A stretch of DNA of 63,256 nt, filler included, from Sphacelaria rigidula (Eukaryota), in assembly GCA_964200075.2 (NCBI GenBank). It is 9 parts of 9 records of this genome, joined end to end, with 100 filler letters (N's around TTAATTAATTAA, not from the genome) between each part and the next. Parts side by side here need not be neighbours in the genome. Positions count along the whole stretch, not along the records: positions 35,201 to 42,139 come from CAXNAA020017306.1; 8 more parts are not named here. One strand, written 5' to 3'. The position numbers and the translations under genes are program-made. The notes below the pieces were generated by a model, which did no database searches, had not been told where the DNA came from, and worked only from the letters and a program-made list of their open reading frames with translations. Positions 7,115 to 63,185 of this stretch are shown here, piece after piece (the first letter of the stretch is position 1; every line of letters begins with the position of its first letter).

Positions 7115-7180
7115 TGCTTCGTCTCGAAAAGGATGCGTGGTCAATGGTCAAGCGACTAAGGCAAGCAACAAATGAGTACG
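7115..7180 (+). mobile_element. 5'-truncated LINE 3' end between C-rich tracts
   Basis: GGATGCGTGGTCAATGG...AAGGCAAGCAACAAATGAGTACG is shared with 28190, 35296, 40204 and 59697. Confidence 0.8.
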
Positions 7181-7757: not shown

Positions 7758-7890
7758 AACCCCTTTCCTTCCTCGGGACGAGTCCACGGTCTCAAGGGAT
7801 CAATCCGTCTCTCTCCGGTACACGCGTTGCATTTTTATCTCGCGGATGAGATCATGACTAACATTCCCGCACCGCGTCAACTCTCGTCAA
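7758..7890 (-). mobile_element. Fragment of SINE-like family B
   Basis: Similar to 59979-60100 and 57345-57470 (CCTCGGRACGAGTCCA...CGGTACACGC). Confidence 0.55.
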
Positions 7891-8234
7891 ACAAATTCTG
7901 TCAACTACTTTTTTTATACCTCATACAGTGCCGATTTGAGCTGTGCGTCAGCGCACACCCCGTGTGGGGCACTCTTGACCTTCCCCTTGCTCGAGAGATG
8001 ATAGTGAGACAAATGTGAGGCAGTGTGTAGCCCCGTGGCTGTCTCTGGCTGTGGAAATGCCAGAAAACGAAGCAACTTATTCGAGGCTGTCATCCGTATG
8101 CAAGATGATCAGTACGCTCCGGCCCGAACAATCTTAGCAGGATGCAGCTCATCCCTCATGCGACGCGCTGAGCATATCACGGTGCTTCGCACGTGGTGAT
8201 TTGAATGCGAGCCTGATCCGGCGAACACCCCACA

Positions 8235-8300
8235 TGCTCCGCTCCGGCTTTACAGCGAGGTCAACGGTCTTATGACTACGGCAGACGGTACAAGAGCACA
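8235..8300 (+). mobile_element. Diverged LINE 3'-end variant
   Basis: TGCTCCG...GCGAGGTCAACGGTC..ATGACTACGGCA resembles 26826-26897 (reverse complement). It is preceded by CACCCC. Confidence 0.45.
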
Positions 8301-9508: not shown

Positions 9509-9658
<150 letters not shown>

Positions 9659-10529
9659 TGAGCTGGGCCAGCCGTAAAACGTACAGAAGCGTATCACACA
9701 TCAACTTTCTCAAGTTTCTCGCATCGCTGTGAACTGCAGAATAAGCTAGTAACTCACGGCTCCGCCGCCGGTCGGTTGGCGCAGTTTTGGCGATGACGTT
9801 AGTGTACCGCATTGAGCACAGGGTACGTCTCATATCGTGGCATGAGAGCGTATATTCTGAGTTGTTGGAAACGCGGCGGAATTACGTGTGACAACTTCGA
9901 CACGCACAGTCAAGAGTGTACTGGTAATGCCGCAAGATGGCATCAAGCTCATCAGCAGCTCCATCATGGGAGAGGACATCCGAGCCGATTGCCACATAAA
10001 TCGAGCTCAGGCACAAGTATCCTACTGGGACTGGGCTGCAACGCTTTTCCTCGATCAAATCCCCGATGGTGATCGCCTTTTCTCACAGTTGCGAAAACAA
10101 ATCTGCCAGATAGTGGCGAAAAAATGATCGGGTCGGGATTGGAACTCGTGACCTGTGTAATAGGAGGCTCGTGCATCAGTAGGACCACCGGGGCGCAGCG
10201 GTGTCGCACAAAAAGTGCCATGCTGTGTCCAATGTCAGCAATTTTTAGCCGAAATTAACCCAGGATCTCCTGTGCGCTACCTACAGTATTTCCGGGGATG
10301 CCTCCGTTATTCGTTTTTTCACGGAGTTATGACATTTTCCCACTTTTTGCTGAAATTTCAAATCCCTCTAACCTTCTGTTTGCTCATTTTTTTGGCTCTT
10401 GGCATCCCAAGAAATGTTGCGCGTGTTGATGATGAAAGCATCGTGTCAGAATTTCAGCACCTAACTCTTCAATTTCACCATCGCCTCACCCGAATAACGA
10501 CGAGAACAACTATCAGCTGGCCCAGCTCG
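9659..10529. mobile_element. MITE with 14-bp TIR and TA TSD (Tc1/mariner-type ends)
   Basis: TA|TGAGCTGGGCCAGC ... GCTGGCCCAGCTCG|TA, inserted at the end of a (TAG)n tract. Confidence 0.8.
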
Positions 10530-13305: not shown

Positions 13306-13980
13306 TATCTGAAATAAGCAATCGAACAGAGCTCTCAGGTCCTTTCTCCAAAAACACAAACTACGTGACAGCGGGGTCTGAGAAGCCATAACGGTACCTT
13401 TGCGCTAACCTGCGTACTCGGTGTCCAGCGCTGTAGGGGGAAAATATGGACAAAAAGAGGGGCAAAATGAGGTCGCTCGTGATCCGGATCAGTGCACTAG
13501 TAAGGAGTAAGATGGAGGTAGCTCATCAGCTGTCCCATGTGTAAAATATCTAGAAGGTGACGAAGCACTGTTCGTGGGTATGAGTACCAATGTGCGTTTA
13601 TGCCCAATATTATCGACAGTTTTTTCGGAGATGTCCGAAATATTCGGGATTTGATGGGGAACGCTGGCGAGCGCCACGGTGTACACACAGGGCAGCTCTC
13701 CGAAGAGCTGCCCTGCTGTCCGAGTTTTGTAGAGTTGCCCAGTAATGAAGCTTCGGGGGAAAAATCACGCTGCTTCGTTTCGGAGAAGTTAAAACACAGA
13801 GCCCGGGGAGTCCGAAAAAATCTGGGGTCTCCGAAAAAGTGTGTCGACAACAATGGACCTCAATCAGGATTCCAAGTCACAACTTGTAGAAATTGAGTGG
13901 GAGGGGGGGTGGGGGGGGCGGGGTGAGTGGGTGGTTGACTTGTTTGTTGGGCCCGTTGCCAGGTGGCCCGCATCCCTCGC

Positions 13981-23945: not shown

Positions 23946-24665
23946 GGAGTAAATAAACGTCTCCTGCTGCATCACATGCTTGCTCCCCTCTCGTGCTCTG
24001 AACTTTCGTGCAAGCCGTATACACGTCGCGTTTGTTTCATGTTGTTCGAGCTACTCGCTGTCTGTCAAGTTGTGCTCAACACTTGTTCTTTGTGCATAAT
24101 ATATGCTGCTGCGCTGACGCCACGAAAACACCACTGTCACACCAACCGTTCTTGGCATGTGGCCTGGTGTGCGACCTACGCGCGATGATGGAGCTGGTGT
24201 GGTATGTGCCGAGGGAACGGAAAACCCTTCGGGCCTTTCAGCGAAAAGCATTTCTATCTAAAAGACCAAACCGACGGAAGACCGGGACGGTCTTGTGGCT
24301 GCGGACTTTGGGGGCAAATATGCCCCCCCCAGACCAGAGTGATACGAACCGTAACGCGGACTTGGGAACGTTGATCAATAGGAATGCCCGAGCCCAAGAC
24401 CCAAATTTGATCTTCACATAATCAAAGTCGGTGGGCTGTTTAAAACCTACTTGTTGAACCGAAATGGGGTTACGTTCCGGTCTTGCTCCGGATTTCAAGA
24501 CCGGACCCCATTTTGGTCTTCGCAAACACCCTACTGATACAATATAAGGGTAACAACACGCGAACAGATCATAATCGATTTCAAGTGGGGAGGAAAAAAT
24601 AACGCGCCAGGTGGGTGGGTATTGTCGCACGTCGAAACGCGGACCACCTTCCGCACGAGAAGAAG

Positions 24666-24699
<34 letters not shown>

Positions 24700-24754
24700 T
24701 TTGTTGCCAGTAAATGTTTACGGTTGGGGGTGGTTTTGAATCAGCTGGTACCGG

Positions 24755-26271: not shown

Positions 26272-26825
26272 CAGATGAATACGCCTACGCTCAAACATTC
26301 GACGGGCCACTGTCAGCGCCACGTACACGGTAACGTCACGCGTTACACGACATGGACAGACTGAAACGTCAAGTTCGAACTTTACACGTGTCAATGAAAC
26401 GTTATGTCGAACACGTGACACGAACCGTTTCATATTACGTGACATGTAAGGAATCGTAGCTTTGATTATTTTTCAACGTGCTAAACGAAATGTGAACGTC
26501 ACGTGCAATTTTTTTCAACGTTCCAACCGAAACGTAACCTGAACGTTGGTTTTTCACATGTCGGACGAATCATTACTCGTCGAAACGAGTGCACTCATGA
26601 ATGTTTTTTGAAAACACAACGAGCATGACTCGTGTGCTCGAGTCACTAATTCTTTTACAACGAGCAACGACTCGTGTGCGCGAGTCATTCAGTTTGTTCG
26701 CAACGAGTCATTCAGTTTTTTTACAACAGGCAATGACGCGTGTGCTCGCCCTATAAATGTACTACTCGAGAGATACTATCCGCCGCTTAAGTACAACTCC
26801 GATCTGTGGGTGGGGGAGGGGGAGG

Positions 26826-26897
26826 TGTACTCATGATCATGCATGCCATAGTTATCAGACCATTGACCTCGCATCCCTACAAAGCCGGGACGGAGCA
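26826..26897 (-). mobile_element. LINE 3'-end variant between G-runs
   Basis: The reverse complement reads C8-TGCTCCGTCCCG...GGGATGCGAGGTCAATGGTC...ATGAGTAC-ACCTCCCCCTCCCCC. Confidence 0.65.
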
Positions 26898-28189: not shown

Positions 28190-28256
28190 CGTACTCATTT
28201 GTTGCTTGCCTTAGTCATTTGACCATTGATCACGCATCCCTTTCGAGACGGAGCAC
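28190..28256 (-). mobile_element. 5'-truncated LINE 3' end followed by C10
   Basis: G10-TCGTACTCATTTGTTGCTTGCCTTAG...GAGACGGAGCA. Confidence 0.8.
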
Positions 28257-33444: not shown

Positions 33445-33643
33445 CCCTTAGACCGCGGGGGTAGGTCATCTGTTGAATCGGCATCAATTTCACTCGAAAA
33501 AAGTATTCGTATTCCAGATAGACTACCCTCGCGGTCTAAGGGTTAACCCTCAGACCGCGAGGCTAGTCTTCTGTTGAATCGGCATCAATTTCAAGTGAAA
33601 AAAGTATGCATGATCTTAAAAGATTAATCTCGCGGTCTAAGGG
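33445..33643 (+). mobile_element. Tandem dimer of about 98-bp piggyBac-type MITEs sharing one TTAA
   Basis: TCAA|CCCTTAGACCGCG...CGCGGTCTAAGGG|TTAA|CCCTCAGACCGCG...CGCGGTCTAAGGG|TTAA. Confidence 0.88.
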
Positions 33644-34317
33644 TTAACGCGCACAGCAGCATGTTTATTATTGTGCAATTCAGCGCCGATCTGATCCATG
33701 CCTGCCAATGCACCCTCCGGATTCGTAGGGCGTCCATTCTCTGCCCCCCTTCCCCTTGCAGGCCTCGATGAATGTCTCACGGTAACTCATGCAAAGTTCG
33801 CGGTGGGTGTACATGATGGAACGCAGCTAGTCGGTCTCTCTTCGCCTCAGGATTGAAGGCTAGCCTTCGTCGATGGTGAACAACTACACAGCACAGAGCG
33901 ACACCTAAAATGTGTGCTAGTCGTCGGCTTTTTTTTTCCAGGGTGCGGGCATACGACATGTCTTCGAAACTGCAGCATGAGCACGATGGTTGGGCGCAGC
34001 AAACAGAGAGATGCAGGCATAACGACTGACAGTGGTCGTCTACGAAAGGACGTACACTGGTCGTTTACGGCACGGGTTGGGAAAACAGTGGGCAAGAGTT
34101 CACGACCCGAGGGAGTGCAGATTCAGTACTTCAAGGCCAAGTGTGACCAGGGGTGAAGTATGTGCCGGGAGGGCGAGATGGCTTCATCCCTCGACAATAC
34201 CGGCTTGTCCCGAGGAAGGGACGGGGATGGCGGCACCGGTACAACGAGACTAATATTAGTATATATTTCGATTACGGCACACTGATGGATTAGGGTTAGG
34301 GTGACCCCGGCTAGTAA

Positions 34318-35200: not shown

Positions 35201-35295
35201 TTGCAACTGACCAAATAAAAAATGTCCCCGGTGGGGGGGTGGGAAGGCCCCTTGACCCAAAAAAAGAGGCAAGGGGGGGGGGGGGGGGCGGGGGG

Positions 35296-35405
35296 CGTAC
35301 TCATTTGTTGCTTGCCTTAGTCGTTCGACCATTGACCACGCATCCGTTTCGAGACGGAGCACCGCTCCTACTCCTGATAGAGACACACCTCCTACATTCT
35401 AGCGT
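35296..35405 (-). mobile_element. 5'-truncated LINE 3' end followed by a long C-run
   Basis: G-run, then CGTACTCATTTGTTGCTTGCC...CTCCTGATAGAGAC. Confidence 0.8.
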
Positions 35406-35862
35406 TCCCAGACATTTGTTTTTCCGGGGGGATAGGGTGGGGGGGGGGTTATATCTGGGCAAAAATGAAATGGAGACTTGAGTGTTGTTGATTGGGCGGT
35501 CTAGATAAACGGGGAAGGGTGTGTGAAGTACTCAGCCCCGGTGGCCACCAGAAAAAAGTCGAGGGCACAGCAGTAAATGATTGGGCATGAGCATGTTTGC
35601 AGTAAATATATCACATTTTTATGAGATGGATGATGAGTATCATGGAGCACGAACAACGTTGATGGTAACCGCGATGAATGATGGATGTAATGGATGATGA
35701 CCACGACGGATGATTGACCACATATTCAGTGATCGACCGCAGTTGATGGTGAACATAGTGGATGATTATAATCACGGATGACCAGCGTACTGGATGGCGA
35801 ACGAGATGAAAAGAAAACGTGACCAACGGATGAACACGAAAAATGATGCCGACAACACGCAG

Positions 35863-37054: not shown

Positions 37055-37195
37055 GTAATAAAGCGCGTACGGTGCGGGCGGAGCGAGAAAGAATAATCCA
37101 AATTCTCCCAAATGGGAAAGTTGTTGCTTAATTTTTCTGACCCGAAGAGGCGTGACATATTACCACTTTTTATTTTCGTATTTATTCATGTATTC

Positions 37196-37564
37196 CACGG
37201 TTAAGACGAATGAAATCGTGATTCAACTCATGTACATCATTCCAATGAATGAATAATACGATTCGTACATCATTTGTAATTTGTACAGGTTTGGAGCTCT
37301 TGAGTCGTGCAGTACACCGTCAAACGTATATGTTTCCCACCGTCGGGTTCATGCGGGACGAAGAGTCGGCACATGGTTAAATCCTCTCAATTCATGATCT
37401 TCGAATCACGCGTACTCTTCTCCCATCTGTAATACGCTGGCGATGACTCCTGCATATGTTATTCACCCTCGGGTTCATGCGGGACCAACAGTCGGCAAAT
37501 GGTTGAATCCCATCATTTCATGAGGAGTCAACCCGTCAACCCGATGAAGTCTAATTCGTCCTAG
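37196..37564. mobile_element. About 365-bp MITE (TIR CACGGTTAGGACGAAT), copy 1
   Basis: Starts CACGGTTAAGACGAAT and ends ATTCGTCCTA. Colinear with copy 2. Confidence 0.8.
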
Positions 37565-38618
37565 AATGTTCTTCCTCCTTCACAATGTAGCACGGAATGT
37601 ATGAAACCGGAAATAAAATGAAGAACATGACACCACACTAGGCAGCTACAAGGGATGCGCGGAGGGGCACAGCAGTCCGCCGCGGCTGTGAAATGCCGTG
37701 CACGAGCGATACCTGCGTAATGGTCGGAGAATGTGTTCCTCCAATCAAGAACCATAGACGGCCGTGGTGCTATGTTGTGGCCTCGGGACACCACAGGAAG
37801 GAAAACACGCAATGATGTACTGGAAGCATCTGTACGGCGGATTGTTCCGCCGTGCCGGCAGTACAACACGGAGCACCTTTCACGTTTCTGTGCTACATCC
37901 AGGGGAAATCAAAGCATTTGCAGACTAGCCGGCAGCGAAGGGGATGTGGCCGGTAATTTGGTATAGGAAAGGATCGTCGAGGGTGTTGTAGATTGCACAT
38001 CGTGAACAAAGTTGCGCAGTGGTGTACGGTGGTTCACCGCGGTTGCCAATTGCTGTGTAAAAACAGACCTCGACGCAACCCGCTTGGGGTTTCCTTGTCT
38101 GAACCCAACAACATTCAACATTCAACATTGCCGGAGTGGTCTGGTTTCATAAAAGGGAAACGGAGCGAGCAAGACCCCGAACCAATTGTACACGGGCTAT
38201 GTTGCGCGTGAGACGGGGTAGACAGCAGGGGAATGATCGCAACCTGCACAGCACCCACCGAGCCAGAACACACTACATGGCAAGACGAGAACCGCGGTAC
38301 GCGCTTATACTGCAATCGTTGCTTGTGCAGGCGCGGCAGCCAAAGGCGACCGTGTGCAGACAGAGAGCAACGACGCTAGAAGAGAAAGAAACGAAATCCG
38401 TGCAGTGGTGAAGACACAAGCGAGTAACGTATCGGAGCACTGCTAGCAACACAGTTGGATAGCGCACAACTAGAGGTTGTTCAGACTGCGCCAAAGCTGG
38501 GCTCGGGTGTTTGCGGCAGTACACTCGTTGTCAAACTCAAACCGCTCATTTTGTGAGGGTGCAACAGACGCGTACTTTCTCCGAATTTTTGTAGGGAGAA
38601 TAATGGACGGAAAACAAC

Positions 38619-38985
38619 CACGCTTAGGACGAATAAAATCGTGATTCAACTCATGTTCATCGTTCCAACGAATAAATCATACGATTCGTACATCATTTGT
38701 AATTTAGACGGGTTCTGAGCTCTTGAGTCGTGCAGTACACCGTCAAAGCTATATATTTCCCACCGTCGGGTTCATGCGGGACGAAGAGTCGGCATGTGGT
38801 TGAATAGTCTCATTTCATGGGCCTTGAATCACGCGTACTCTTCTCCCATCTGTAATGCGCCGGAGATGACTCCACTGCATATGTTATTCACCCAGGTTCA
38901 TGCGGGACCATCAATCGGTATATGGTCGAATCCGGTCATTTCATGGGGAGTCAACTCGTATGAACCCTGATTCGTCCTAACCGTG
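38619..38985. mobile_element. About 365-bp MITE, copy 2
   Basis: CACGCTTAGGACGAAT ... ATTCGTCCTAACCGTG. Confidence 0.85.
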
Positions 38986-39760: not shown

Positions 39761-40203
39761 GTGAGGCATGCATACAGCATGGTATAAAGGAAGAGGAGGA
39801 AGGAAGGGAGGGGGTCAGACGAATAGGAAAAAAGCATGAACCTTTTGAAGAAATGTTTCACTGTAATTTGTGGTATGCTCAAGAGATGACGATTAGATCT
39901 TGGATTCTGGGTGGGTTTTTTATGGTACGGTAATACATTGTACTTGTAAGAGGGAGGGTTGAATGCAGGAGGGGATTTGAGATCGGTCGTGTCCGATACC
40001 TGAAGTTAGTTTAGTGTAGAGGTCAGGTCAAGTCGTCGATGCGACTAGTACGGATGTATACGGTACCGGGAGATATCACAGCTTGACTTGACCGGAACGG
40101 CTTTGCGCTCGGAATCAAACCAGTTCAGCCTCTCCTTTTTGTTCTGAGAACTGCTGTGACCCATGTTCGTCTTGCTCAATCCGTCCCTCCCCAATGGTCT
40201 TTT

Positions 40204-40403
40204 CTAGGAGATGGATGGTGGCTAGAGACGGCGAAACGGGACGGGGATAAGATATGTCAAAGGTTGTGTATTGTACGGAAGACACGTAATGAGCGCCAGA
40301 ATGTTGGAGGCGTCTCTATTAGGAGTAGGAACGGTGCTCCGTCTCGAAAGGGATGCGTGGTCAATGGCCACACGACTAAGGCAAGCAACAAATGAGCCCC
40401 CCC
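40204..40403 (+). mobile_element. LINE 3' fragment with C tail and 15-bp TSD
   Basis: CCCCAATGGTCTTTT occurs at 40189-40203 and 40404-40418. The insert encodes LGDGWWLETAKRDGDKIC...SRNGAPSRKGCVVNGHTTKASNK*. A second 3'-end variant follows at 40407-40446. Confidence 0.85.
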
Positions 40404-40662
40404 CCCCAATGGTCTTTTTACTACGGCATGCATGTTCATGAGTACACCCCCCAACCCCCCCGGCCGCCCGGCCGCCGCAATATGATTATGTACTTCCGTC
40501 GCCTAAAAGCATATACCTTTTTTTCTTCTGCAAATTTCGGCAACATGTCCCTCTCGCTGTTGTTCCTTTCTCCGTTGGAAATCTCGTGTTGCCTGCTGTT
40601 TTGCTGACACGGGTCGTCTCTTCTTCATCTCATCTGCGGTCGGTCGATGTGGCGTGGTGTAG

Positions 40663-42696: not shown

Positions 42697-44496
42697 ACAT
42701 CCCTGTCCGCGTCATAGGCGGCCCAGCCTGTACCGTTATTCCGAACTCCTGACAGACCACCACCACCATGACCATCATTTCAGCAAGCCCGTGCGGAGCC
42801 TCCGAGACTCTGCCAGCGTCATCCGCGCACAGGATTACCCATGTCGCGCGCCGCACCCTCTCACAGCCCCCCTCTCCCCCTTTTCAAGGTTTCTTCCAGT
42901 TGACTTTATTTTCGACAAAAATATCCTACCTTATCTCCATAAGAAGACTTTATTTTCGACGAAAAACAACAACACGACCATGGTAACCTTTAACGGTCGA
43001 TACACACCTCTCCCGAAAAAAGTTCAGGTCCTGACATTCAAACATCGCGCGATCAATCACAGGTATGTACGTTCCCAAGGGCGTGGGAATACCACCCATT
43101 GTTGTCCATATTTCCCCCAGTATTCGCATTGGCCATAACTTTTGCAACGACGACGAGTGAGCAGCCGAAAGGGGTGTCGGTGGTGTCGTCTTGATGTCAG
43201 CGGTGCAACCGCCAACCTCCAGTGCATTTGGACAAGATTTCGGGTATGTTGAGACCCTACGATGGAAAAAGGGGGGGGGGGGGGGATAATTTGGATCATT
43301 TCTTCCGCGAAACTCCGCTTCAAATCGTCATTAAACCAGCCACCGTTGTCCGAACGAGCTTGCTACCGATAAATAACACCCATCAGTACTGCTTGACACC
43401 CTTGTCACTCAAATACAAGCGAACCGGAGTGTTTTAGGTCGTCTAGCACACCTCTGAGCCCATTTTTTTGTGTGGAATCAACCCACCCCCTGCCTCCCTA
43501 CCTCTAGACTCTTGGGGGTGGCATCGAGGGGCAACGGCGCTGTAAAACAAGCCATCAGAACCTAGACATGAAATGTAGAGACTGTCACCGTACATATACC
43601 ATGGACCGCCACTAGACGAAAAAAGTCCCGGACCGACAGACACACTAGAGATGCAACAACCTAAATAACCAATTTTGTTTTCCCCCAGGAAAATACAAGA
43701 TGGATGTAGACATGATATAAGAAAGCTGACCATTTTTGTTCTGATTTTATGCCTTCCCTTTCTTTATTCTCTACTTCCTCTGTCACATAAGTTACGACCG
43801 AATTTCTCACAGACGTCGTTAACGGTCTCCGATGCTGTTTTCGTTTCTTTTGTTGAATTCCTTGGCGTTTTTGAGTGTAATACAATGTTTTTTTTTTTTA
43901 ATTTGCATCACTCCAGATGGAGTAGCGGCCAGAAAAAACAGGTCGGCCCAAAAAAGGCCGTTTTTTACCCCTTTTCCACGAACAAAATAGTGCCGAGAAA
44001 GGAAAAAAAAACATGGGAAAAAAATAAATCGTTAATCATCCTCTCCATCGCTCGTGCTTGATGCCAGATAGTCCCAAGCCTTTGTGAAGGCCTCCTTGTC
44101 GTACTTGACTGTCCTTTCCAACGTTCCCGCCCTCTGCCGCGCGGATATCCCGGTGTGCTCTACACTAAATTCTCAAAAACGTTCTCTAAAACATTCTCGA
44201 AATGTAGCCGAAATTGGCCAATTTTGGGGACGTTTTGGCCCATACTTTGAGATGTAATAAAATCGCATATCATTTTTTTTTTTGCATCAGTTAGCTGCAA
44301 AACATATCTTTCCGAAGAAACTAATTATAGTATGATAGGCACTTCCGTTGAAAAGGTACGATCTGCGCCGAAATGCGGTCCTAACTTATGTGACAGAGGA
44401 AGTCTGTTTTTTCCCCCTTCTTTTTTGTTCTCTTCCTTTTTCCGTTCCCTCGTACACTAAATATATATATATATTTTTTGTTGGTTTTCTCCGCTA

Positions 44497-44830
44497 CTAT
44501 AACACAGCCCAGACGTGGACATGAAATAAAGAAGCTAATCATCCCTTTTCTTTCACCTACCATAACACAGCCCGGACATAGACATGGAATAAAAGAAGCT
44601 TCTTTATTTCTACCATGGCACAGCCCAGACATGGCCATGTAATAAGAGAGGCTAACCATCCATTTACTTCAACTTACCATAACACAGCCTGGATATAGAC
44701 ATGAAATAAAGAAGATAAGCATCCTTTTCCTTGAACCTACCATAACACAGCCCAGACATGGACATGTAATAAAGAAGGTAACCATCCATGTTCTTCAACC
44801 AACCATTACACAGCCCGGACATGAACGTGA
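44497..44830. repeat. Minisatellite, about 55-63-bp unit, 5-6 copies
   Basis: Repeated ACCATAACACAGCCCRGACATGGACATGWAATAAAGAAG. Confidence 0.92.
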
Positions 44831-45304
44831 GATAGCGAGAAAAAACAGTTGTATGTTTTCATCTCGAACCGGAGAACAACCGAGATCCTTCCCCTATATC
44901 ATATCATGGGTAAAACTTAGAACAAAACCAAAACCTAGGCATGTAAGTAATAGCGTGAAGGTTGGCCACCTTATATGCAAAGGGAAAATGCGAAAGATGT
45001 AACAAGTGCGGATAGGGTAGGGTCATCACCCCCATGTTGAATTCACACGGGGGTTGGGGTGTCATGGTGAGATACCCGTAAAAACTTTACCGGCTTCCAG
45101 TAGGCGGTGGAAATCTGGTCAGACGTTTCCAGATATTTATGATATTAGGCGCAAAAGGCGTGTAATGACGGGAAGGGGTGGATAATGCATGGCATAAACG
45201 TCAAGATCTACTGCCCTCATGAAACAAACACCTTACCGATGGCCGATCACCTGACCGACGAGAAGGAGCACCAAGCGGTACGTAGACTTTTCGAGATCTT
45301 GAAG

Positions 45305-48300
45305 GATGGAAGCTGGTACAAAGTGTGGGGGAATCGTTGGCCAAGCTTTCGGCAGCGTAAAAGAATAGAGATAGCCCAGCAAGTAAGTAACCGCGACCTA
45401 GACATAGTGGGAATACAAGAATCATGAGAGAAAGAGGGCGCGGAAATAGGATGCAAAGCTGAAGAGTACGCATGAATAGGGAAAACGCGGGAGGGACAGA
45501 AGCCCAAGAGCAAGGGAGCGGGGGAAGTAGGATTCTTAGTCAAGGAATACCTGTGCGACAGTATGGAAGTGATCGACGACATGAAATTCGACGAGAGCAT
45601 ATGGATAAGGGTACCAGAAGAGTGGGGAACGAAGGACTTCTTCGTAGGGAACATCTACATGCCCCAGAATTGAAGAGTAGGGTGGACGGTATTCAGCGTA
45701 GGTTTGGAGAGATAGCAGCAGATGTACATAAGCCTGAAAGGCAAGGAGAAGTAACGTTGTAGTAGTGGGTTATTTCATTGCAAGGGTTGGAAAAACAGGT
45801 CAACCGAATGACATCGTTGGTCAAAACGGGGAAGATCATAAGGACGAATGGGGTAGGAACGCTGACGTTCCTTGAGGCTCACGAGATGAAGACGCTGAAC
45901 GATGGGACACAAGAGCCAGAGGCGCAATGGACATGGACGAGGAAATGCAAAGACGGAAGAGAACGCTCCGTTCTTGCCTATATAGTGGTACTGCGTGGAA
46001 GTAGTGAATAAATGGAAGTACATGTATGCGCGAAGGGCATGGGAACTTCAGATAGTTGCCTGATATGGACAGAAAGCCAACAGTCGAAAGCTAAAAGAAA
46101 CAGGCGGGGTAAGAAGTATTACAAATATATGTAGGATCCATAAAATGTAAGTTGAGAAACAACAGCACGGGTTCCAAGAAGAGATGGCCAAAAATGCAGT
46201 AAAAAATTCCGAACTGTTGGAAAGCGTTGGTACAGTTGATACCGAAATGGAAAGGGATCGGGCAGGAGCGAAGATTGTAGAAGGGTAGCAGTAGTTGGTC
46301 AAGAACACAGCGAGTAAAGCCATATGGAAGAAACTGATCGTATGCAACAGAGCAGTAAAATGGTGGGATGAGGAAGTAAAATAGGCTATCACAGTAAGGA
46401 GAGCGGCCCAGGCGAGGTGGATATCAAGTAAAACTACGGGAGGATGGGAGGAGTATACTAAGGCTCGAAAGGAAGTAAAATGATGGTAGAAAAGAAAAAT
46501 AAGGGAGTGTGGGAAGCTGTAGTGAAACACACAATAGAAGATTTCGATGACGGGATGAAACAAATGTGGGTAGGCATTAAAAGAGATCATGGGAAACCAG
46601 GCAACAAAGATAGACAAGGGGATAGCCACACTACGGACACAGAACGGTAAAATGGTGAGTAATTCAAAGGGAAAGAGAGAAGTGCTAGTCGAGTACTACC
46701 GTAAACTAGGAACACCAAGAGCTAACACGAAGTTCGACACGGAGTTCGAGAAAGAGATCAACGAGTGGGCATAAGTAAATATAGAGACGTCAAAACGGGA
46801 GGATAGGGGCTCGAAAGAATTACAGAGAGAATTTGCGTAAAAGAGTGTGTAGCTAATCTCAAGAACAGAAAGGCGGCGGGGAGGCGAATTCATTTGTTGC
46901 TTGCCGAAGTCGTTCGACCATTGAAATGCAGCAGGGGCGGACGAAATAGTGAATGCATTTCCAAAGTACAGGGGAGAGGGAATGATCACCATGATTGATA
47001 TGCTGTATAACTTGATCTGGGAAAACAAGTACACACCCAAGAGGTGGAAAGAAGGAGTAGTCAACCTTTTCAAAAGAGGAGACGAGGCTGATCTAGGGAA
47101 TTATAGAGGGATAACGCTACTGAGCACGGTAGGGAAAACAGTCAGGGAGATTCTGAACGATAAAGTAGGAACGATGCTAGAAAAGGACGAAACATTCAGC
47201 GAAGGGCAAGCAGGATTGAGACCAAACCGTAGTTGTGTAGACCATGTGTACACACTAGGTGAGATTATTCAGGGTACGAAAGACAGGGGGCTGACAACGT
47301 ACTGCTTTTCTCCGGACGTACGAAAGGTTTACGGCACATTACGGGAAAATGGGCTGTCGAAAATGATGCGGGAAACTGGGATCAGAGGAAAGGTGTGGAA
47401 AATGTAATGGCAGAATATGCCAAATGTACTATGACGCTAGACGGGGAAATATCGAAATATTTTGATATTTTACAAGGAGCTGCACAAGGATGTATGTTAT
47501 CACTTTTTTAAAAGTAATTATTAATGACCCGATAATAGCGATAGAAGCAGCAAAGAACGGAGTCAAAGTGGGTGACGATATGGTATCAGGTTTGATGTTC
47601 GCGGATGATTTTGTGGGAAATCAGGAACACCAGAAGGGTTACAGGTACAGGTAGACAAGGCGCTAGAATAAACTAGGAAATGGAGAGTGACAGCGAACGT
47701 TAGCAAATGCGCGGTATTCGTATGCAACGAAGATAAGAAACATCCGGTAGAGTTCAAATGGAAGTGGGGATAAGAGGAACTGCCGATCGTAGTCCAATAT
47801 ACATACCTTGGCGTAGAGATCTCAAAAAGCTGTTCTCGAGATGCACACATAAAAAAGTAATAGAGAAGGTTGAGGCACAGATAGGAAGGATAGACGTGAT
47901 CGCAGAGAATCGCAGCTAGATACTATAGGTTTGTATCCGGATGAACGTGATCGTACCAAAGCTGAAAATATGCTGGAGAAGTATGGGAGGGGGACGTGAA
48001 GTTGGTGAAGAAATTGGAAACAGTACCAGAGGCAGCAGCTAAGAAAATACTTGGATGCTGGAAAGCGACGAGTACTGCAATTTTGAGAGCAGAGTTGCGG
48101 ATGTACCCACTTGAAACAGAGACATAAAAAAACTGACATGGCAGTATAGCATACGAACATGCAGAGAAAGAGATTGCCAGCTATAGTTGATGAGGCTGTA
48201 TGGAAAACAAATACGAAAGGGCAGGCTGAAATACGGTGGGATAGAGAAGTCGAGAAAGTATGGAAGGGGATAGGACGAAATCAAGACGAAATCCTGTCCA
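45305..48300 (+). pseudogene. Decayed non-LTR retrotransposon (LINE) ORF2: APE endonuclease plus reverse transcriptase
   Basis: APE motifs LDIVGIQES, GxGEVGFLV, ESIWIRV and VGNIYMP. RT motifs KAAGADEI, NLFKRGDEADLGNYRGITLLSTVGK, QAGLRPNRSCVDH, QG, MFADD and YTYLG. There are many stops and frameshifts, and the C-terminus is missing. Confidence 0.95.
46882..46924 (-). mobile_element. 43-nt antisense LINE 3'-end insertion inside the LINE ORF2
   Basis: CATTTGTTGCTTGCC...GACCATTGA is flanked by an imperfect duplication, AAGGCGGCGGGG and AATGCAGCAGGGG, of the KAAG codons. Confidence 0.75.
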
Positions 48301-49178
48301 TAGGTGAACACTAAAATGAGACTCGAGTGGCATAACTAAAATCCACTTTCGTGCGAAATAGCACTGCCCAAGGGAAGCAGTTCCGCAACAATCGTTTTTG
48401 TCGCAGTTAAGCAGGTGTGGCTGGGTGCACCGAATGAATGCAGTGTGCACGCGTGTCGATGGCGGTACTGCTGAAGGAGCAACGGCGGAGAGGAAGCTCC
48501 TCGCACGTGTCCCTTCTGAGTCCTCGTTCGGCGATTCCCAATCGCTGGAGAGGTTGGCATCATGTCACCAGCACATACCCAATTTGCCATGTGCCGGCAG
48601 GCGAGTTATTGCTGCACAGCCCCCCGAAGATCGGGATGCCGAGAGTTTTTGTCTCTTGTCTGTGGCGCAGACCAATGCAACGATCGATTCCTGTCTGCCT
48701 CTCTTTTTGGAAAGGACGCGCCTCTACGCGCTGCGGAACACGTGGTCGAAAACCAGCGCGATGTTTTCCGTCGCCGCTACTGTTGTCACACATGCATGCT
48801 AACACGGACAGTGTTGCGGCAGTAAGATTCAACGATCGCAATGTGGGGGTGTTTTTGTCCTCGTTGATTTCATCCGACCTCTGCACCTGTGTGTGTACAA
48901 CAAAGACAGGAGTCTGCCACACCCCCGTTGGCGGGATGTATGAGAGATCAAACACTTGGAGACATTGGTCTGGGGAGTGAAAAAATATACCTCTGGCGGT
49001 GACCTGACTGTTGCTGGCGTGACCCATATGGGGGCTGCCATCCTGTAATCTGAGCCTTTCTTATGTACAACCGGTCGCGTGCTCAGCAGGGTGTGTATGT
49101 GTGTCTGTAGCAAGGACAAACAAAGCGCTATGTGAGGGCATCGTAAGTTGAGGCGAGATATGGCTATGGCTCCACGGG

Positions 49179-49278: not shown

Positions 49279-52200
49279 CCCCCCCCTATCGTAGGATGAC
49301 TCAGTTGGTGAGTACTCATCCCGGATGTAGTGCTGATGATGAATGTGCTCTCAAATCAAATCCCCCCCCCCCCAAAGCTTGGCACACGCACAAAACCTCA
49401 TCAGCTTTCAAAACGACGTCGGTGGACGGGAGGAGTCGTGCCGATCGTGTGTCCCAACACCAATCGCGCAGCAGCGGTAACGCTCCGACCACCGAAGGGT
49501 CCTAACCGTGAGGGATATTTCCCACGCACGCACACGCCGATCGTTGACGAGGGGCGTGAATAGTGTAGCTATAAAACATATGAGGGTGTGGACTTACCGA
49601 GGCAGTGAAATGCTCAAATAGCGCCCTCCTTCCGCTCGTGCAAGGTCCTCGTTTATTCGATGAAAGCTTTCCCACCGTGACGTGCATCCTTCTGCACGCC
49701 GTGGCCCCCTTCCTCGAACTCTCCACAGAGGGGTCTCACCACAGGGGAGCGCATCTTTTGTTTCCTGCCTGTGCATCCTAGGGGTCGCCTGTCGACGGGA
49801 GAGACACCCGGGTGTCTTTGTGGGCAGCATCACAAGACTGTCGGCGTCAAAGGTGCGCCTCTGTGGCAGGGTCGCCGTCGCAGAGGGTTTGAGGGGAGGT
49901 GGGATAATGCTCGTTACCGGCGAACCAGCGTTAGGCGTTCAATGGCGCCCTCGTCCATCACAGCCGGAACGTCTGCCAGGGATAGCTCCCTTGGCGTACA
50001 CCCGCCCCATTCTACCTTGTACGAGTATCGGCGAGAAGTGTCATGAAATGATTGCCCGACGACACGTCGCTCAAATAACTTGGCTCCTTTCCAAGCGGGC
50101 GTCGCACGGCGCCGTCCCTCGACGTATACGATGGGCGCGCGAATTCTCCGCTGGATTATCGTTCCCTCGGGAAACATGCCGTGCGCTTTCACCGGGGCTC
50201 TGGCGACGTCGGAAACATCGAGAGAGGTGTGAGGATGGTCAACGAACGCCGTGGATGGATTCAAGGACATCAACACAGCATTGCTGCGAGCACCCTTAAT
50301 CGAAACCGTCGTCAGCTGCCACTTGGATGTATCCCTCCTGCTTTGCGTCATGTATGCAGACATCGGCGTGCCCAGAGCCGCAAAACTCGCAAGAGGGATA
50401 GTGCGTAGGTTCCGGTGGCTGACCGTCTGCGAGGTAACACAAAACCGCCGCCCTCCTCCGTCAATGGCCTGCTGGATGTCGTGAATCCACACCATGATGT
50501 CCCCCGCATCGAACATTCCATCCGAGGAGAAGGCTCTGTCCCATGGGGATGGCGCTTGACGTGCGATCACAACAGGGACAATATCCTGGCCCTTGCTTTC
50601 GCTCGCGTTCACGCGGATAAGCGCCGTGGACCCATAAGGTAAGCCCTCTTGCATGCGTGTGAAGGTGGTTTCCATCTCCACCTCCCGGTCGCTGATGGCC
50701 TCATCTGGGTCGCGCCGCCGCGACCATTCCATCGGTGCCGAAATCACGCCACGCCGGATAAGTGGACACAGGTGCCCCTCCCCGGTGCGGCATCTTTGGC
50801 ATCTTCTTAATTACAGACATGAGTGATCGGCACACGTCAAGTGACGGTGAGCATGAGCGCAAGTACAGTTGACTCTTTCCGGGGTCGACGACTCATCCTA
50901 CGACGATGGGGAGGGGGTACTCATTATCCTCCATGTCGTGGTAATGTGACCATAGACATCGCGTCCGTACAAAGCCCGGGCGGAGCACGCTTGGTTTCGT
51001 CCGACCCGACTCGCAATCAATCACCCGTCGCGAAGTGTCGCGGAGTGCTTGGCGGGTCGCATGAAGGGCGAGCGGCATCCTGCTAACATTGTTCCGCTCG
51101 AAGTGTGTTGATTTCTTCTTTTGGATGACAGTCTCTAGTGAGTTGGTTCATGTTATGGTATCACGACTTCTATAGACAGCCACGGCTTATACACTGCGTC
51201 ATGGGAGTCTTGCCATTTAAACACTAGGCAACATGATCATGTCTTCTGCGCCGACTTGAGGTTTTCCCCATCAGCACAATTTCATCCGGCCCGAGTACGA
51301 TCGTGGTTACCGCGAAACACCCCACTAGTAGCGGTTGAACACAAGTGGTAACCTGGTTGCCTACTTTGCGCATTGAGTGGCGTGTTTTATATCGTGAGCG
51401 ACAACAGACGCCAACCCCACCGGGGGGGTCCGCCCCTGCTATGTCGGGACGGAGCACGCCGGGCTTTCGCCGGGCGACCGTGTCGATGAAGGGGGGTGGG
51501 TGGGGGGTATCTCTGAGCATCCCTCTTCGGAAGTAGGCATGAATGCTTAGGTCAATGCGATGGCCATCGATATATATATATCACTCATTCCTACCTCTGG
51601 ACACCGCATTGATTGAGATACAATTGCACCGTGAGTGGTGTAGGTCGTGCGACACACCGACAAGCCTCTTACTGTCGAATAAAGAATCCCCCTGTAACGT
51701 AGGGTGGGCCCGATGGCTACATTTCGAGATGAGCCTGTCTCGAGGGTAAGTGTGGCATCCATCTTCCATCCCGTCGATAAAGTGCCCGCGATCATTAGCG
51801 GAAAACACTTCAGTCGAAGACTGTGAACTCCGATAATACCGCCTATATCGATTGTGCAGTCGTTAGGCTTCGTACTCACCCGCAAGATAGTTGGTACGAG
51901 ACCACCACTCCCGGCGTGGACGTTGCTGCGATTCGAAACAGATACATGTAGCTGCTGACATGGATGGCCATCCGGGATGTTTCAGCACTAGGACGTGTTG
52001 CAGCAACCTCCGTCTTATGGACGAGTAACACCTTGCGTCCGAGAAGTGTGTTCTTCTGTTTCGTCAATGCGAAGCATCTTGTCGCCTCGTTCGTGTCCCG
52101 TGCTCCGCACGCGTTTTACGGAGGAAAACCGGGTGGGCAAGCTCGTGAGAAAACTCTTCTTCGATCTATGTTGGCATTTTGGGGGTGTAACTCGGGCCAT

Positions 52201-57090: not shown

Positions 57091-57344
57091 CTGAGCGGTG
57101 AATCGCCCCGTGGGTGGTGCCCCTCCTCCCGTTCGTTGATAGTATGAGAACAAGGGGCAGTAGAGTGCAGATGAGAAATGGAGTACAAATGATCGCTTCG
57201 GGGAAAGGGAGACAGAGGGCCTAATGATTTTCGAAATATAATAGTACAAGTCCGGTTGAATATGAAACCAGTGCGGTATGGGGAAATGGGGATTAAAATC
57301 CGGCTGCCAAGGTAACGTCCTTTTTTTTTCTGTTCACCCTACTA

Positions 57345-57616
57345 TTCCTACCCCTTCTTCAGAACGAGTCCCCAGAACTCAAGGGGTCAACCCGCCTCTC
57401 CCCCACAGTACGCCTTGCATATTGGTATCGCGACTAGGATCAGCGTTCCCGCACAGCATCGACCGCCGTCGAATACATTCGCGCTGCTGGTCACATCCAA
57501 ACGCTTTCAACAACGGAAGTCAGATACTTCTCAGCGGAACCCCTCATCTGCCGGGATCCGCGTCCCCAATCTTTCAGTCTAACAACTATCAGTTCCGCAC
57601 TTAGATCTCCGGGGCG
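57345..57616 (-). mobile_element. SINE-like family B copy
   Basis: The body is colinear with 59979-60170 (GAACGAGTCC...ACGGAAGTCAGAT). A degenerate tRNA-like head lies near 57616. Confidence 0.55.
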
Positions 57617-59614: not shown

Positions 59615-59696
59615 TCGGGCACTGACCTGATCTTAGTGTAGTCATCGTTTTCTCCTCTACTTGTTCTCCATTCTACCTCCCCACCCCCCCCTTCCC

Positions 59697-59978
59697 CAAC
59701 GGTACGTGCTAGAGGGGGAAATGAATTCGTTTGATGCATGACAGCAGGGAGAAAACGATGGCTATACTAGGAGATAGATGGTGGCCAGAGACGGCGAAAC
59801 AGGACGGGGATAAGATAATATGTAAAGGGTTCTTGTATAATGTATGGAAGAAACGTAATGAGCGCCGGAATATTGACGGTGTCTCTATTCGTAGGAACGG
59901 TGCTCCGTTAGAAAGGGATGCGTGGTCGATGGCCACACAACTGAGGCAAGCAACAAATGAGTACGCCCTCGCCCCCCG
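59697..59978 (+). mobile_element. Longest LINE 3' fragment, with C-rich tail and 11-bp TSD
   Basis: Encodes DSREKTMAILGDRWWPETAKQDGDKI.CKGFLYNVWKKRNER. CCCCCCTTCCC occurs at 59686-59696 and 59979-59989. Confidence 0.85.
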
Positions 59979-60328
59979 CCCCCCTTCCCTCGGAACGAGT
60001 CCATGGTCTCTAGGAATTAACCCATCTCTCCCCCGGTACACGCCTTACGTTTTGGTGTCGCGGAGTGGATCGCCAATCCCCCATCGCGTCGACTGTTGCC
60101 TGACAAACTTGGTAAAATATTCTCCTTTGCTGCTCACGCCCTCACGTTTCCAACGACGGAAGTCAGATGCTTTTGAGAAAAAAAATTCAACAGGATGCAT
60201 CTGGCCAGAATCGAACCCCTGTTTTCCCCGCCTTGATGATCCGAGATGCAGCTAATGTGTGACGGAAATCAATCATCTCTCAATCCAATCAACGGAGTTA
60301 GCTGTACCATTGGACCATCGGCGCGCGG
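59979..60328 (-). mobile_element. SINE-like family B element with tRNA-like head and G-rich tail
   Basis: The minus strand starts GCGCCGATGGTCCAATGGTA (A-box-like), has GGGTTCGATTCT (B-box-like) and ends GAGGGAAGGGGGG. Confidence 0.55.
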
Positions 60329-62154
60329 AATGACGATGATGATCAACACCGCGAGGCGCACGACATCGACATGTTTCTATAGCCTGGTACACAGCTGAAG
60401 CTTGAACCCCTGTTCGCATGGGCTACTGCAATAGCCCACAGAGCACGTCTTCTGGTATACGGTACCAAAGGAAGTCATCGCATCTCGGCTACTATTAGAG
60501 GCTTCAGCACCAGTGTACGGGACATTTTGATCCCTTTTTTCTCCAGTACATGTCACATCTATAATGCGCGGGAGGACCATGTGATTTTTTGCACTGCATC
60601 GGAAATTGAACACCCCATGATCGACGTGTTTCAAGACCACTCGGGCCACTCCCTGCAAGGACCGCGCCCCTGACCCTGACCCTAACACCAACCCGAACCC
60701 TAACCTTGACTCTAGGAATGTTGAAATTCCGATGCGGTCCAAAACACACGCGATCCTTCCACGCATCACAAAATCCATACGAAAAGCCACGTGCTCTTTG
60801 TCGGAGTTCTGGAGGGGATGGAGTGTGTGGTTGGCATATTTCTAGTGGGACAGACATGTAGGCTAATGAGAGAGAGCAAGGTGAGACACCGTTTATCGAT
60901 ACCGTAGTGGCAGTACAGGCACCGTAGGTTCGATGCCGACGCATGGCTGGAGACTCTCGCTCTCTGCACGGTATGTTGGTCGTGCGCCTCCACCAAGTAC
61001 AGCAGCGTCACTTTATACTCATTCTACAGTATAGTCTCAACTCACGACAATTTCTTCGGTAGGTGGGTATAAATGGCGGGTATTACAATTAGCTGTCCCC
61101 TCTGTGTGTGGGCCAAGAAGCACCTCGACAACAACCGCGTGCCAAAACCTAGGAACCCTTCTGATGAAAAGTATCCCTGATGCAACTGTCCACCGTCCAC
61201 ACGCGCTGTGCGCGCTTTGCAGATCAACTTATTGTGCAAGAAGTGCAGCTAAACATCACCCGCAGGCGTGAAAGAGGTAGTTATTGTGGTAAGCCACATT
61301 TATCGCGAAACCACACTATTTTTCACTGATTTTGACCTCATGTAGACAAGAGCTCTTAAATAGTCCTGAATGGAGCATCGATCTGCCCATCAACTTACAG
61401 TACTCTGGGCTTTCATTTCAGCACATGAAAAATCCTCGCACGTCGTGCTCACCTGCGAAAACTGCGAGCCTCGTATTTGCGGCCGCGCCTTCGCTCTGTA
61501 CAGCGATGTGTGGTGTCCACTTGCAAGCAATCGGTTGTTCCAACGCAGAGATCCAGTAAAAGTGAAAACAGTGTTGTTGTAGTAGAGTGGGTGCCCCCAA
61601 GTGTGCGCCTCTGCTGCTGTGCCGAGCGCCTTTCCCAGTTTGTTCACAATGCGGTCATGTTCGTTCCTCTTGACGGTTTGAATTCTGCAGGGAAATAAAT
61701 GCGGTGAGATTTTTTGTAGCGAGGCGTGTCGAGAAAAAGATCGACGGGATACAATATCTGCTGCGTGTTCATAATTCGTGACATCGATACTCGAAACGAT
61801 AGGTCGTATCGCGTGATATCGCGCGATATCGGATGCAAGTGCGAGTATGGTGTCGGGAAATCCGTCTTGGTATAGTACAGTAGAAGGTTGGGTTTTCGCG
61901 CGTTGATCACACCCCTGTGCAGTCGATCCAATACGTGTCAGACGATCGACTTCATTATATCACTTCTTGGTTCTTGCTTGTTGAAGGCACCCCTGTTCGA
62001 TTACTCTTACGTGTCCGATGACCCGTAGTTTTTCGTCGCCATAGTAGATCGCTAAGACTCGATGAACAGACCGAGATATGTGTGTGTACAAGTGTGCATG
62101 GTGGGACGTTTTTACCATATCCCATGCGTCCCACATGCACCACTGATTTCTTAG

Positions 62155-62155
<1 letters not shown>

Positions 62156-62203
<48 letters not shown>
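62156..62203. repeat. (CAA)n microsatellite
   Basis: Directly visible. Confidence 0.97.
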
Positions 62204-62204
<1 letters not shown>

Positions 62205-63185
62205 GTATACATGGTGGGAAACGAGATACGATATGTTATCGAATTATTGCGCAGTTTTAGGCCATACCTATGCGGTATATCCCGGCTATGTCGGAGTAGA
62301 TATATCTGGGATTGGGATTCGATACCAACCGCTAGTATACAGTTCCCACTTGGGGTATGTGGTCGCCTACACGGCTCTATTGTAGTCTAGAAACGAAACC
62401 GCCTCCCAAGAATGCGGGGGAATCAAGGAAACGCGGGTGCGGCAAGACTTTGACCAATGAGGGCGGATGCACTGCGCTACTTGAATACCAAGAGCATATC
62501 ACTTGCCGTCGGCTTAGCCCCCGACTTTCTGCCAGCTAGCATTCGCGAACACGTACATGCCAAGTAGCCCCATTCCGATTCTAAAGGAGCAGTCTGTTTA
62601 TGCTGCAACATCGGCCCCAAACACCGTAGCGAGATACGCAGGGAGGGGGTCGCTCACGCCAGAGGCTACTACTGTGTGAACAACCTCGATAGCACAGAGT
62701 TCCCGCCTTGACAGGCGAGTGTGTAGTACGAGATGTGAGTTCCAGTCAACGTGAGGTACCATGCAGCAAAGCGGTTGACAACGAGCCGAGTTGACGGTAC
62801 TGGGGGGTGATGCATATGCCGGCAGAGAAAGAGGGAGAGAGGAAGAGAGAGGCAGAGACAGACGGGGCATACACGTTATGCGACACTCTTGGACTGCATA
62901 TATATCATACAAACGGCAATCTACGCCTAAGGGGCGTTGTGTCCCCCCTCTCGCCAGTGTCCCCCCTCTCGCCAGTGGTGGTTGTTTGTGAAGATAGATG
63001 GACTGTCACTACACCAAGGAACTTGTCGTTCGTGATTGTGATCCTACGATTCCCGATCCTATACACAACTATAAAAATTGAACAGCCGTACGACCTGTTG
63101 TCTCCTTGAATCTAATTTGTTATTCTTGGTCGATTTCGTCGCGTAGCTTCGTGCAGTACCGGACTATGAAGGAACAATAATAATA

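Follow-up and report, generated by a model that had tools for sequence, protein, structure and literature searches.

In a 63,256-base stretch of the Sphacelaria rigidula assembly GCA_964200075.2 (the window, consisting of nine segments of ~6.9 kb with N44-TTAATTAATTAA-N44 linkers between them), the 3′ end of a long interspersed nuclear element (LINE) recurs in copies that run into C-rich tracts, and the candidate duplications of their target sites start with C as well. The best explanation for these copies, which we regard as probable, is that they are 5′-truncated copies of a brown-algal LINE whose RNA would end in a C tract and would be primed from a nicked G run.

Copies were collected with nhmmer over the whole window at E<1e-4, using a profile of the last 66-72 nt of the element. 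Ten were recovered, comprising six A-type copies and four B-type variants spread over seven of the nine segments (Table 1), and the profile detected no further significant copy in the window. All of them keep the common 3′ end and vary in 5′ truncation, the eight with a mapped 5′ end measuring 38, 39, 65, 66, 71, 129, 193 and 267 nt. A 22-nt motif or a near match to it was found at 7158, 28191(-), 35297(-), 40378 and 59943, the sixth copy being 46886-46924(-). The first-pass annotation of this DNA had listed most of these copies and described a common 3′ end with variable 5′ truncation; every position it gave was recovered by the motif search and nhmmer, and the truncation pattern was borne out (38-267 nt), while the module at 50917-50988(-) had been missed and the copies, assigned to six independent contigs, lie in seven segments. 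The term module denotes the terminal ~66 nt, in which the last 21 residues are encoded. A further nine sequences that precede C runs were scored against it, of which two (13919- and 51429-) exceeded the 95th percentile of shuffled controls and none exceeded the shuffle maximum. These two stretches, 13903-13960(-) (...CAACAAACAAGT..., then C8-A-C7) and 51422-51460(-) (TGCTCCGTCCCG..., then C7), resemble the end and the start of the module, respectively, at the edge of the shuffled controls, and both were kept out of every count.

The first 15 nt past the ten ends contain 11, 11, 13, 11, 11, 10, 12, 12, 10 and 6 C, corresponding to an overall composition of 71% C, 9% A, 11% G and 8% T, with at least 10 C at nine of the ten ends. 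All 15-mers of the window on both strands served as background (mean 3.71 C, standard deviation 1.9). When ten 15-mers were drawn at random 200,000 times, their mean never rose above 6.8 and stayed short of the observed 10.7. No poly(A) was present in the first 15 nt after any of the ten ends, in agreement with the earlier statement that every copy is followed by a C-rich tract and never by poly(A). The tails range in length from ~1 to >20 nt. Past the C runs we found no conserved sequence common to the copies, except for a separate repeat adjoining A5, which indicates that the C tract is not an internal stretch with more of the element after it; an internal tract of the 3′ untranslated region (UTR) with conserved element beyond had been named as an alternative at the first pass.

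The same tract was traced outside the window through protein databases. The C-terminal motif occurs in 100 of 120 database proteins, among the matches listed, and in 51 of those 100 there is no stop and the open reading frame (ORF) reads on for at least 4 aa. Among these 51 read-through ORFs, not all of which are mutually independent, 35 carry PP within the next 10 residues, compared with 4.7% of 87,685 stop-free 10-aa windows from the window DNA. The read-through is typically xV(R)PPPP, the translation of GTAC(G)CCCCCC..., and KK, which poly(A) would encode, was seen in 1 of 51. Six ORFs in the other two frames are likewise proline-rich (QATNEYPPPP, GKQQMSTPSPPP); in a seventh, P0072 (QATNEYASPPS), no proline run directly follows the end. 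Proline runs in read-through ORFs from elsewhere show that the C tract is a trait of the family and not a quirk of the window's assembly.

Table 1. Copies of the LINE 3′ end, their flanking features and the older LINE copy in the window (TSD, target-site duplication).
Feature	Position	Strand	Description
Copy A1	7115..7179	+	65 nt, exactly the 3′ module; C29-G-CCC-G-C24 tract before, GCCCCCACCCCCAC after
Copy B8	8016..8299	+	non-coding; decayed module ending GAGCAC (8234-8299), then ACCCTAGCCC
Copy B26	26827..26897	-	71-nt B-type 3′ module; CAC8 before, ACCTCCCCCTCCCCCACCC after
Copy A2	28191..28256	-	66 nt, exactly the 3′ module; then GA-C10; no TSD visible before segment end
Copy A3	35297..35425	-	129 nt; 5′ flank ...CCACCCTATCCCCCC; 3′ flank GCCCCCCG-C16
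A4 TSD, 5′ copy	40189..40203	+	CCCCAATGGTCTTTT; 15/15 identical to 40404-40418
Copy A4	40204..40396	+	193-nt 5′-truncated 3′ end; ends ...AAATGAG, without terminal TAC
A4 tail	40397..40403	+	7 C beyond the C4 of the target; 3′ junction 11 C versus CCCC at the 5′ copy
A4 TSD, 3′ copy	40404..40418	+	last 11 nt are the start of older fragment B40
Copy B40	40408..40445	+	38-nt B-type fragment, ...CATGAGTAC, then ACCCCCCAACCCCCCC (40446-40461); nhmmer E 7.8e-05
Older, decayed copy of the same LINE family	45353..48302	+	P0053 residues 181-1153 (endonuclease, reverse transcriptase, part of C-terminal region); without 3′ end
A6 flanking repeat	46870-46881 / 46925-46936		12 nt, 9/12 identical
Copy A6	46886..46924	-	39-nt fragment, opposite orientation inside older LINE copy; nhmmer E 3.1e-07
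Copy B50	50917..51201	-	non-coding; ~210-nt body common with B8 plus 72-nt B-type module (50917-50988), then CCCCTCCCC
Candidate A5 TSD	59686-59696 / 59979-59989	+	CCCCCCTTCCC; weak by non-cognate control
Copy A5	59698..59964	+	267 nt, frameshifts; 14-nt tail GCCCTCGCCCCCCG (59965-59978)

Target-site duplications (TSDs) were assessed by comparing the 5′ flank of each copy with the 3′ flank of that copy; pairing it with 3′ flanks taken from the remaining copies served as the control (56 non-cognate pairs). Since C-rich matches of 7-16 nt occurred in 14 of the 56 non-cognate pairs, flanks match through their C runs and a repeat made of C proves nothing. Among the eight mapped copies, the TSD of A4 is solid (15 nt), that of A6 probable (12 nt) and that of A5 weak (11 nt), and five copies are uninformative or show none; the candidates at A1, A3, B26 and B40 were dropped as evidence, consisting of C-run matches only, by which the longest-exact-match measure is confounded. 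The A4 repeat, CCCCAATGGTCTTTT, contains 10 letters other than C, and none of the 56 control pairs exceeds 6. Its 3′ copy runs into the older fragment B40, indicating that A4 inserted 11 nt into B40, at a point that adjoins the C run at the 5′ side of that fragment. The 3′ junction of A4 has 11 C where the target had T-CCCC, which suggests that at least 7 C arrived with the insertion.

A6 lies within codons for RKAAGAD of the older LINE copy. On one side of A6 the alignment of the host frame to P0053, a full-length relative described below, extends as far as residue 689, and on the other it resumes at residue 687, with the Ala-Ala-Gly codons (residues 687-689) duplicated. By our own reading, all three mismatches in the repeat fall at third codon positions. 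On the element strand this repeat starts CCC(C/T)GC, and GCCT alone stands between it and the element end. At A5, a 14-nt C-rich tract separates GTAC from the 3′ copy of CCCCCCTTCCC. Just past the A5 tail and TSD, 59983-60064 is another repeat, which has 80% identity to 7767-7846 and was compared also with 57321-57529. Its copies start with a C/T-rich edge (CCCCTTTCCTTCC / CCCCCCTTCCC), and this edge seems to have served as the target of A5, a reading that fits the sequences and is no proof.

The candidate TSDs of A4, A5 and A6 all start with C (CCCC, CCCCCC and CCC(C/T), respectively), an agreement of limited statistical weight. The predicted priming strands at these three reconstructed sites end ...CATTGGGG, ...GGCGGCGGGG and ...GGGAAGGGGGG, in each case with the 3′ end in at least 4 G. 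The first-pass annotation had reported three duplications starting with CCCC, the one at 46870/46925 imperfect; all three are present and start with C, the imperfect one as described, and only that at 40189/40404 exceeds what non-cognate C-rich flanks produce.

Read in frame, the A copies encode ...LGD(G/R)WW...RSRNGAPSRKGCVVNG..TKASNK*, the stop being the TGA of AAATGAGTAC just before the common end GTAC (...AAA TGA GTAC). The element has no 3′ UTR, its coding sequence reaching to 4 nt from the end. A 63-aa query from this C-terminus matched 125 of 127 candidate proteins at E<=0.01, with a Sphacelaria rigidula protein (80% identity) as the best named relative. The full-length match, P0053, is a single 1360-aa protein that starts with M, ends ...KASNK and holds both endonuclease (EN) and reverse transcriptase (RT) domains; copy A4 aligns to its residues 1295-1360 (tblastn). 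An endonuclease/exonuclease/phosphatase-fold domain (PF03372, E 3.4e-12, and PF14529; residues 170-414) lies N-terminal to the reverse transcriptase (PF00078, residues 740-989, E 9.8e-31), and a Cys/His knuckle near the C-terminus was identified by eye. The nearest solved chains to the RT are L1 ORF2p and R2 proteins (E ~1e-20). P0053 thus holds a single EN-RT ORF; an upstream ORF1 may exist, as the window contains no full-length DNA copy. What had been called an ORF2-like 3′ end is accordingly a LINE protein C-terminus, but the end of a single EN-RT ORF.

With residues 150-1100 of P0053 as query, an Ectocarpus sp. protein was found at 59% identity, and its C-terminus (...NNAPSSRGRVVNGLTAK) is homologous to that of the window element. 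Judged by these sequence matches, the copies are 5′-truncated ends of a brown-algal non-long-terminal-repeat retrotransposon, that is, a LINE with a predicted apurinic/apyrimidinic endonuclease (APE)-type endonuclease and reverse transcriptase, which most likely is a member of RTE-X, a group curated in Ectocarpus. The older copy that hosts A6 has 72% identity to P0053 over 160 aa; its part 45353-46128 aligns to P0053 residues 181-436, and its part 46925-47407 matches RVT_1 at E 2.3e-06 (27.9 bits, just under the 29.6 cut-off). This copy, 45353-48302(+), stops ~200 codons short of the C-terminus and has no 3′ module. Such a loss is unusual in a LINE copy, and a deletion or later rearrangement near 48300 may account for the missing part.

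Three of the eight mapped copies (A1, A2 and B26) have 5′ ends that agree to within one base, at (G)TGCTCCG, which is the 5′ edge of the module. Such agreement is far from random truncation and reflects either a preferred point of stopping or template switching, or a minimal mobile unit made up of the module alone. The non-coding copies B50 and B8 have 73% identity over 237 nt and consist of a common ~210-nt body followed by a 66-72-nt module, which is all that they have in common with the LINE. This non-coding family is probably the counterpart of the Ectocarpus RTEX-N elements. That non-coding partners borrow the module suggests that it is what the LINE protein recognises.

Folding of the module was considered, as its start GUGCUC can pair with its end GAGUAC and an internal hairpin CGUCUC-GAAA-GGGAUG is possible. 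RNAalifold on eight sequences gave -4.76 kcal/mol with 0 compensatory pairs among 13, and in the same sequences the GUGCUC/GAGUAC helix was 92.9% paired with 0 double changes and did not beat shuffles. Neither the RNAalifold fold nor the closing helix has covariation support in the eight sequences, and Rfam returned no match for the module. The peptide ...RSRNGAPSRKGCVVNGQMTKASNK (e.g. 40334-40396) is highly conserved across the database matches, possibly owing to the RNA rather than the protein.

A C-rich RNA tail pairing with a nicked G run is the best reading of these data, from which we infer an RNA C tract, its pairing and an endonuclease preference. Transcripts would run through the genomic C tract downstream of the module, and the LINE protein would bind the module. 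Its endonuclease would cut the target strand within a G run or next to one, and the G-rich 3′ end set free in this way could pair with the C tract of the RNA and prime reverse transcription; a second nick 11-15 nt away would generate a TSD starting with C on the element strand. Different pairing registers would give different tail lengths. Because polyadenylation cannot make a C tract, the tract would be copied from the donor locus, and the element would have to take its tail along to each new locus, where it would need a G-rich primer complementary to that tail. Tails and C-rich TSDs would themselves be good targets, so that copies would nest beside each other. The choice of G runs might reflect endonuclease specificity, a requirement for pairing or a combination of the two. 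A more specific proposal, that target choice is set mainly by pairing of the donor-copied oligo(C) with a G run and that the 66-nt module is sufficient for mobilisation, is put forward tentatively, as we lean slightly against it; bearing on sufficiency, three of the eight copies are exactly the module, and unrelated non-coding elements carry it.

A number of observations weigh against priming of a C-tailed RNA from G runs. Only the A4 duplication is clearly beyond chance: non-cognate matches of at least 11 nt, the length of the A5 repeat, occurred in 3 of the 56 control pairs, and A2 shows no TSD before its segment ends. The tails are not pure homopolymers, being interrupted by G, A or T and mostly beginning with G or A; A6 is almost tailless, with GCCT only; C-run lengths close to segment starts may be assembly-limited; and tail C and target C are indistinguishable at a junction. 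Putative membership of RTE-X is drawn from the Ectocarpus annotation note and the 59% homologue, not from phylogeny. The 5′ flanks are C-rich too (mean 8.9 C in the last 15 nt at the eight mapped 5′ ends), part of which is expected if TSDs begin with C, and a C run directly abuts the 5′ ends of A1 (C24, with C29 before) and B26 (C8), which a 3′-tail model alone does not require. Insertion into a neighbour's tail, an all-C TSD of very few nt, or addition without a template at the 5′ junction are possible origins of these abutting runs. On the 5′ side of the homology, 40 database ORFs extend for at least 8 aa, and 8 of them show PP among the 10 aa that directly precede it, a figure that is noisy owing to frames and ORF starts and was left unused.

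C-rich sequence on both sides is what would be seen if the element had no C tail of its own and inserted site-specifically into (C)n/(G)n tracts, the flanking C being split or duplicated target. In line with this, C runs give matches just as good between non-cognate as between cognate flanks, at most 4 nt lie between the A6 end and its TSD, the Ectocarpus annotation reads '(C)n termini/TSD', and an A-version would be Candida Zorro3, which has poly-A at both ends and integrates at poly-A tracts (PMC3956500, in the part available). We nevertheless consider this explanation unlikely, because the A4 3′ junction carries 11 C in place of the four of the target (CCCC after a T), a C-rich stretch of 14 nt separates the GTAC of A5 from its candidate TSD, the A6 target is ordinary GC-rich coding sequence with no homopolymer, and curators list '(C)n 3'' as a trait of the RTEX-1 consensus itself, as far as the accessible annotation goes. 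Alternatively, the RT might add untemplated G to the DNA 3′ end, first ahead of its contact with the RNA and again after run-off, leaving C runs at both junctions. The runs abutting the 5′ ends of A1 (C24, C29 further upstream), B26 (C8) and A3 (C6) and the variable tail length would suit such a process, but it leaves unexplained the C runs owned by the target (CCCC in the A4 5′ TSD copy, CCCC... in the A6 host codons) and the G/A/T interruptions in the tails, and the C tract before A1 may instead be the tail of an upstream element cut by the segment start; as a general account it is improbable. Both processes may contribute alongside priming of the C-tailed RNA from G runs. That the C runs are an assembly or sequencing artefact, or an internal 3′ UTR tract with conserved element beyond, is contradicted by the data and very improbable: although the starts of several segments (7041, 28161, 35201, 49279) fall in a C run or no more than 100 nt from a copy, the Ectocarpus curation, in its available part, reports the same C trait, the copies have no homology past the C runs save the repeat adjoining A5, and prolines run past the same end in 35 of the 51 read-through ORFs, which come from other assemblies.

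Mammalian L1 has a poly(A) tail and a T-rich nick site. The Sphacelaria element resembles it in having an APE-type endonuclease and RT, 5′ truncation, candidate TSDs of similar length and a homopolymer tail complementary to the primer strand, and differs in that its tail is C and not A, it has no 3′ UTR and its candidate TSDs start with C and not A. Unlike in L1, the non-coding partners hold a specific 3′ module, which points to strict 3′-end recognition. The first-pass annotation had proposed a C/G mirror image of L1, and the C tails, the G-run primer ends at three sites and the Ectocarpus annotation speak for it, while the RNA C run and its pairing stay at the level of what we infer. The eel element UnaL2 is a stringent LINE with a simple-repeat tail and a 3′ module common with short interspersed nuclear elements. 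Like stringent LINEs of this type, and like Ectocarpus RTE and CRE, the element described here has a 3′ module common with non-autonomous elements, a simple repeat that would be templated by the genome and no poly(A), whereas its repeat unit is a single base and the stem-loop of its module is without covariation support.

The closest record is a curated table of Ectocarpus elements (PMC12477816, supplementary file 1, Genome Biol 2025), the available part of which lists RTEX-1a_Ec32 (5867 bp) as 'single EN-RT ORF; (C)n 3'' with a 'C-rich' TSD, and RTEX-2_Ec32 with '(C)n termini/TSD' and likewise a 'C-rich' TSD. The same file gives RTEX-N1 and RTEX-N2 as non-autonomous elements with their last 60-100 bp in common and 'C-rich' TSDs, and assigns (CAA)n tails to RTE and (CA)n tails to CRE among the other Ectocarpus LINEs. 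According to the accessible part of PMC12477816, RTE-X and its non-autonomous partners are the most abundant single transposable element families in Ectocarpus. The Sphacelaria element matches RTEX-1/2_Ec32, as described there, in its brown-algal host, single EN-RT ORF, '(C)n 3'' and 'C-rich' TSD, and it matches RTEX-N1/N2 in having non-autonomous partners with only the last ~60 bp in common; it differs from RTEX_Ec32 in species and in its diverged sequence, the match being by description and the 59% protein homologue, not by consensus DNA. A C tail with a C-rich TSD is unusual among LINEs, yet on record as annotation for this related Ectocarpus element. Three points go beyond the Ectocarpus record: the 3′ module is coding, the stop codon stands 4 nt before the end, and nested target sites were reconstructed.

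Whether such an element had been described was left undecided at the first pass; it has been, as the curated Ectocarpus annotation, where the C-tract features stand as table notes, and in the accessible part of PMC12477816 no mechanism was found. Nothing relevant to the mechanism of a C-tailed LINE was found in the literature covered, which leaves out most subscription journals and Repbase Reports, so that earlier notes may exist; the available portions of a Chlorella RTE-X preprint and a brown-algal genome preprint yielded no tail data and no LINE text, respectively. Zorro3 of Candida albicans offers a further comparison (PMC3956500, in the part available): it also has a homopolymer on both sides and integrates into tracts of the same homopolymer, whereas its tracts are A, it is reported without TSDs, and it belongs to the L1 clade and has two ORFs.

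The descriptive facts being already in the curated table, the value of the present analysis would lie in the proposed mechanism and not in discovery. If true, oligo(C):G-run pairing would be a natural C:G counterpart of the A:T rule of L1 without polyadenylation, and the element would provide a natural test of primer-template pairing versus endonuclease specificity in deciding where LINEs land. A preference for G/C runs and for its own tails would shape brown-algal genomes, given the abundance of RTE-X reported for Ectocarpus in the part of PMC12477816 available, and would explain breaks in short-read and long-read assemblies at such runs.

The tails resemble repeats of one purine plus 5-7 C (G-C5-A-C5-A; G-C6-G-C16; A-C6-AA-C7; G-CCCTC-G-C6-G), as seen at 7180-7195, 35273-35296(-), 40446-40461, 59965-59978 and 26800-26826(-). 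Repeated re-priming, carry-over of donor tail together with donor TSD, or mutation are possible sources of this pattern.

The window as a whole is repeat-dense. A Pfam scan of its 39 ORFs of at least 120 aa matched a single family, RVT_1 in one ORF, and almost no host genes were recognisable among them. C/G runs of at least 7 nt number 26, about ten of which adjoin LINE 3′-end copies (counted from the list). Four of the nine segments (starts 7041, 28161, 35201 and 49279) have their first base inside a C/G run or element end or ~100 nt or less away from one; should these starts be contig ends, the assembly would break at such homopolymers, and the longest C runs (C29, C24, C22 and C16) would not be reliable in length. 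Long trinucleotide arrays occupy 9529-9659, 24660-24700 and 62150-62208, one block being (GTT)n(CAG)n(TAG)n and others (CAG)n and (CAA)n, the last of which is the same repeat as the tail type of Ectocarpus RTE elements. A tandem array with a ~63-nt unit lies at 44495-44836, and a 256-nt direct repeat with internal 126-nt units occurs at 37195-37523 and 38618-38946, 1.4 kb apart. Finally, an 88-nt repeat family (33465-33653) is present in four copies in three segments.

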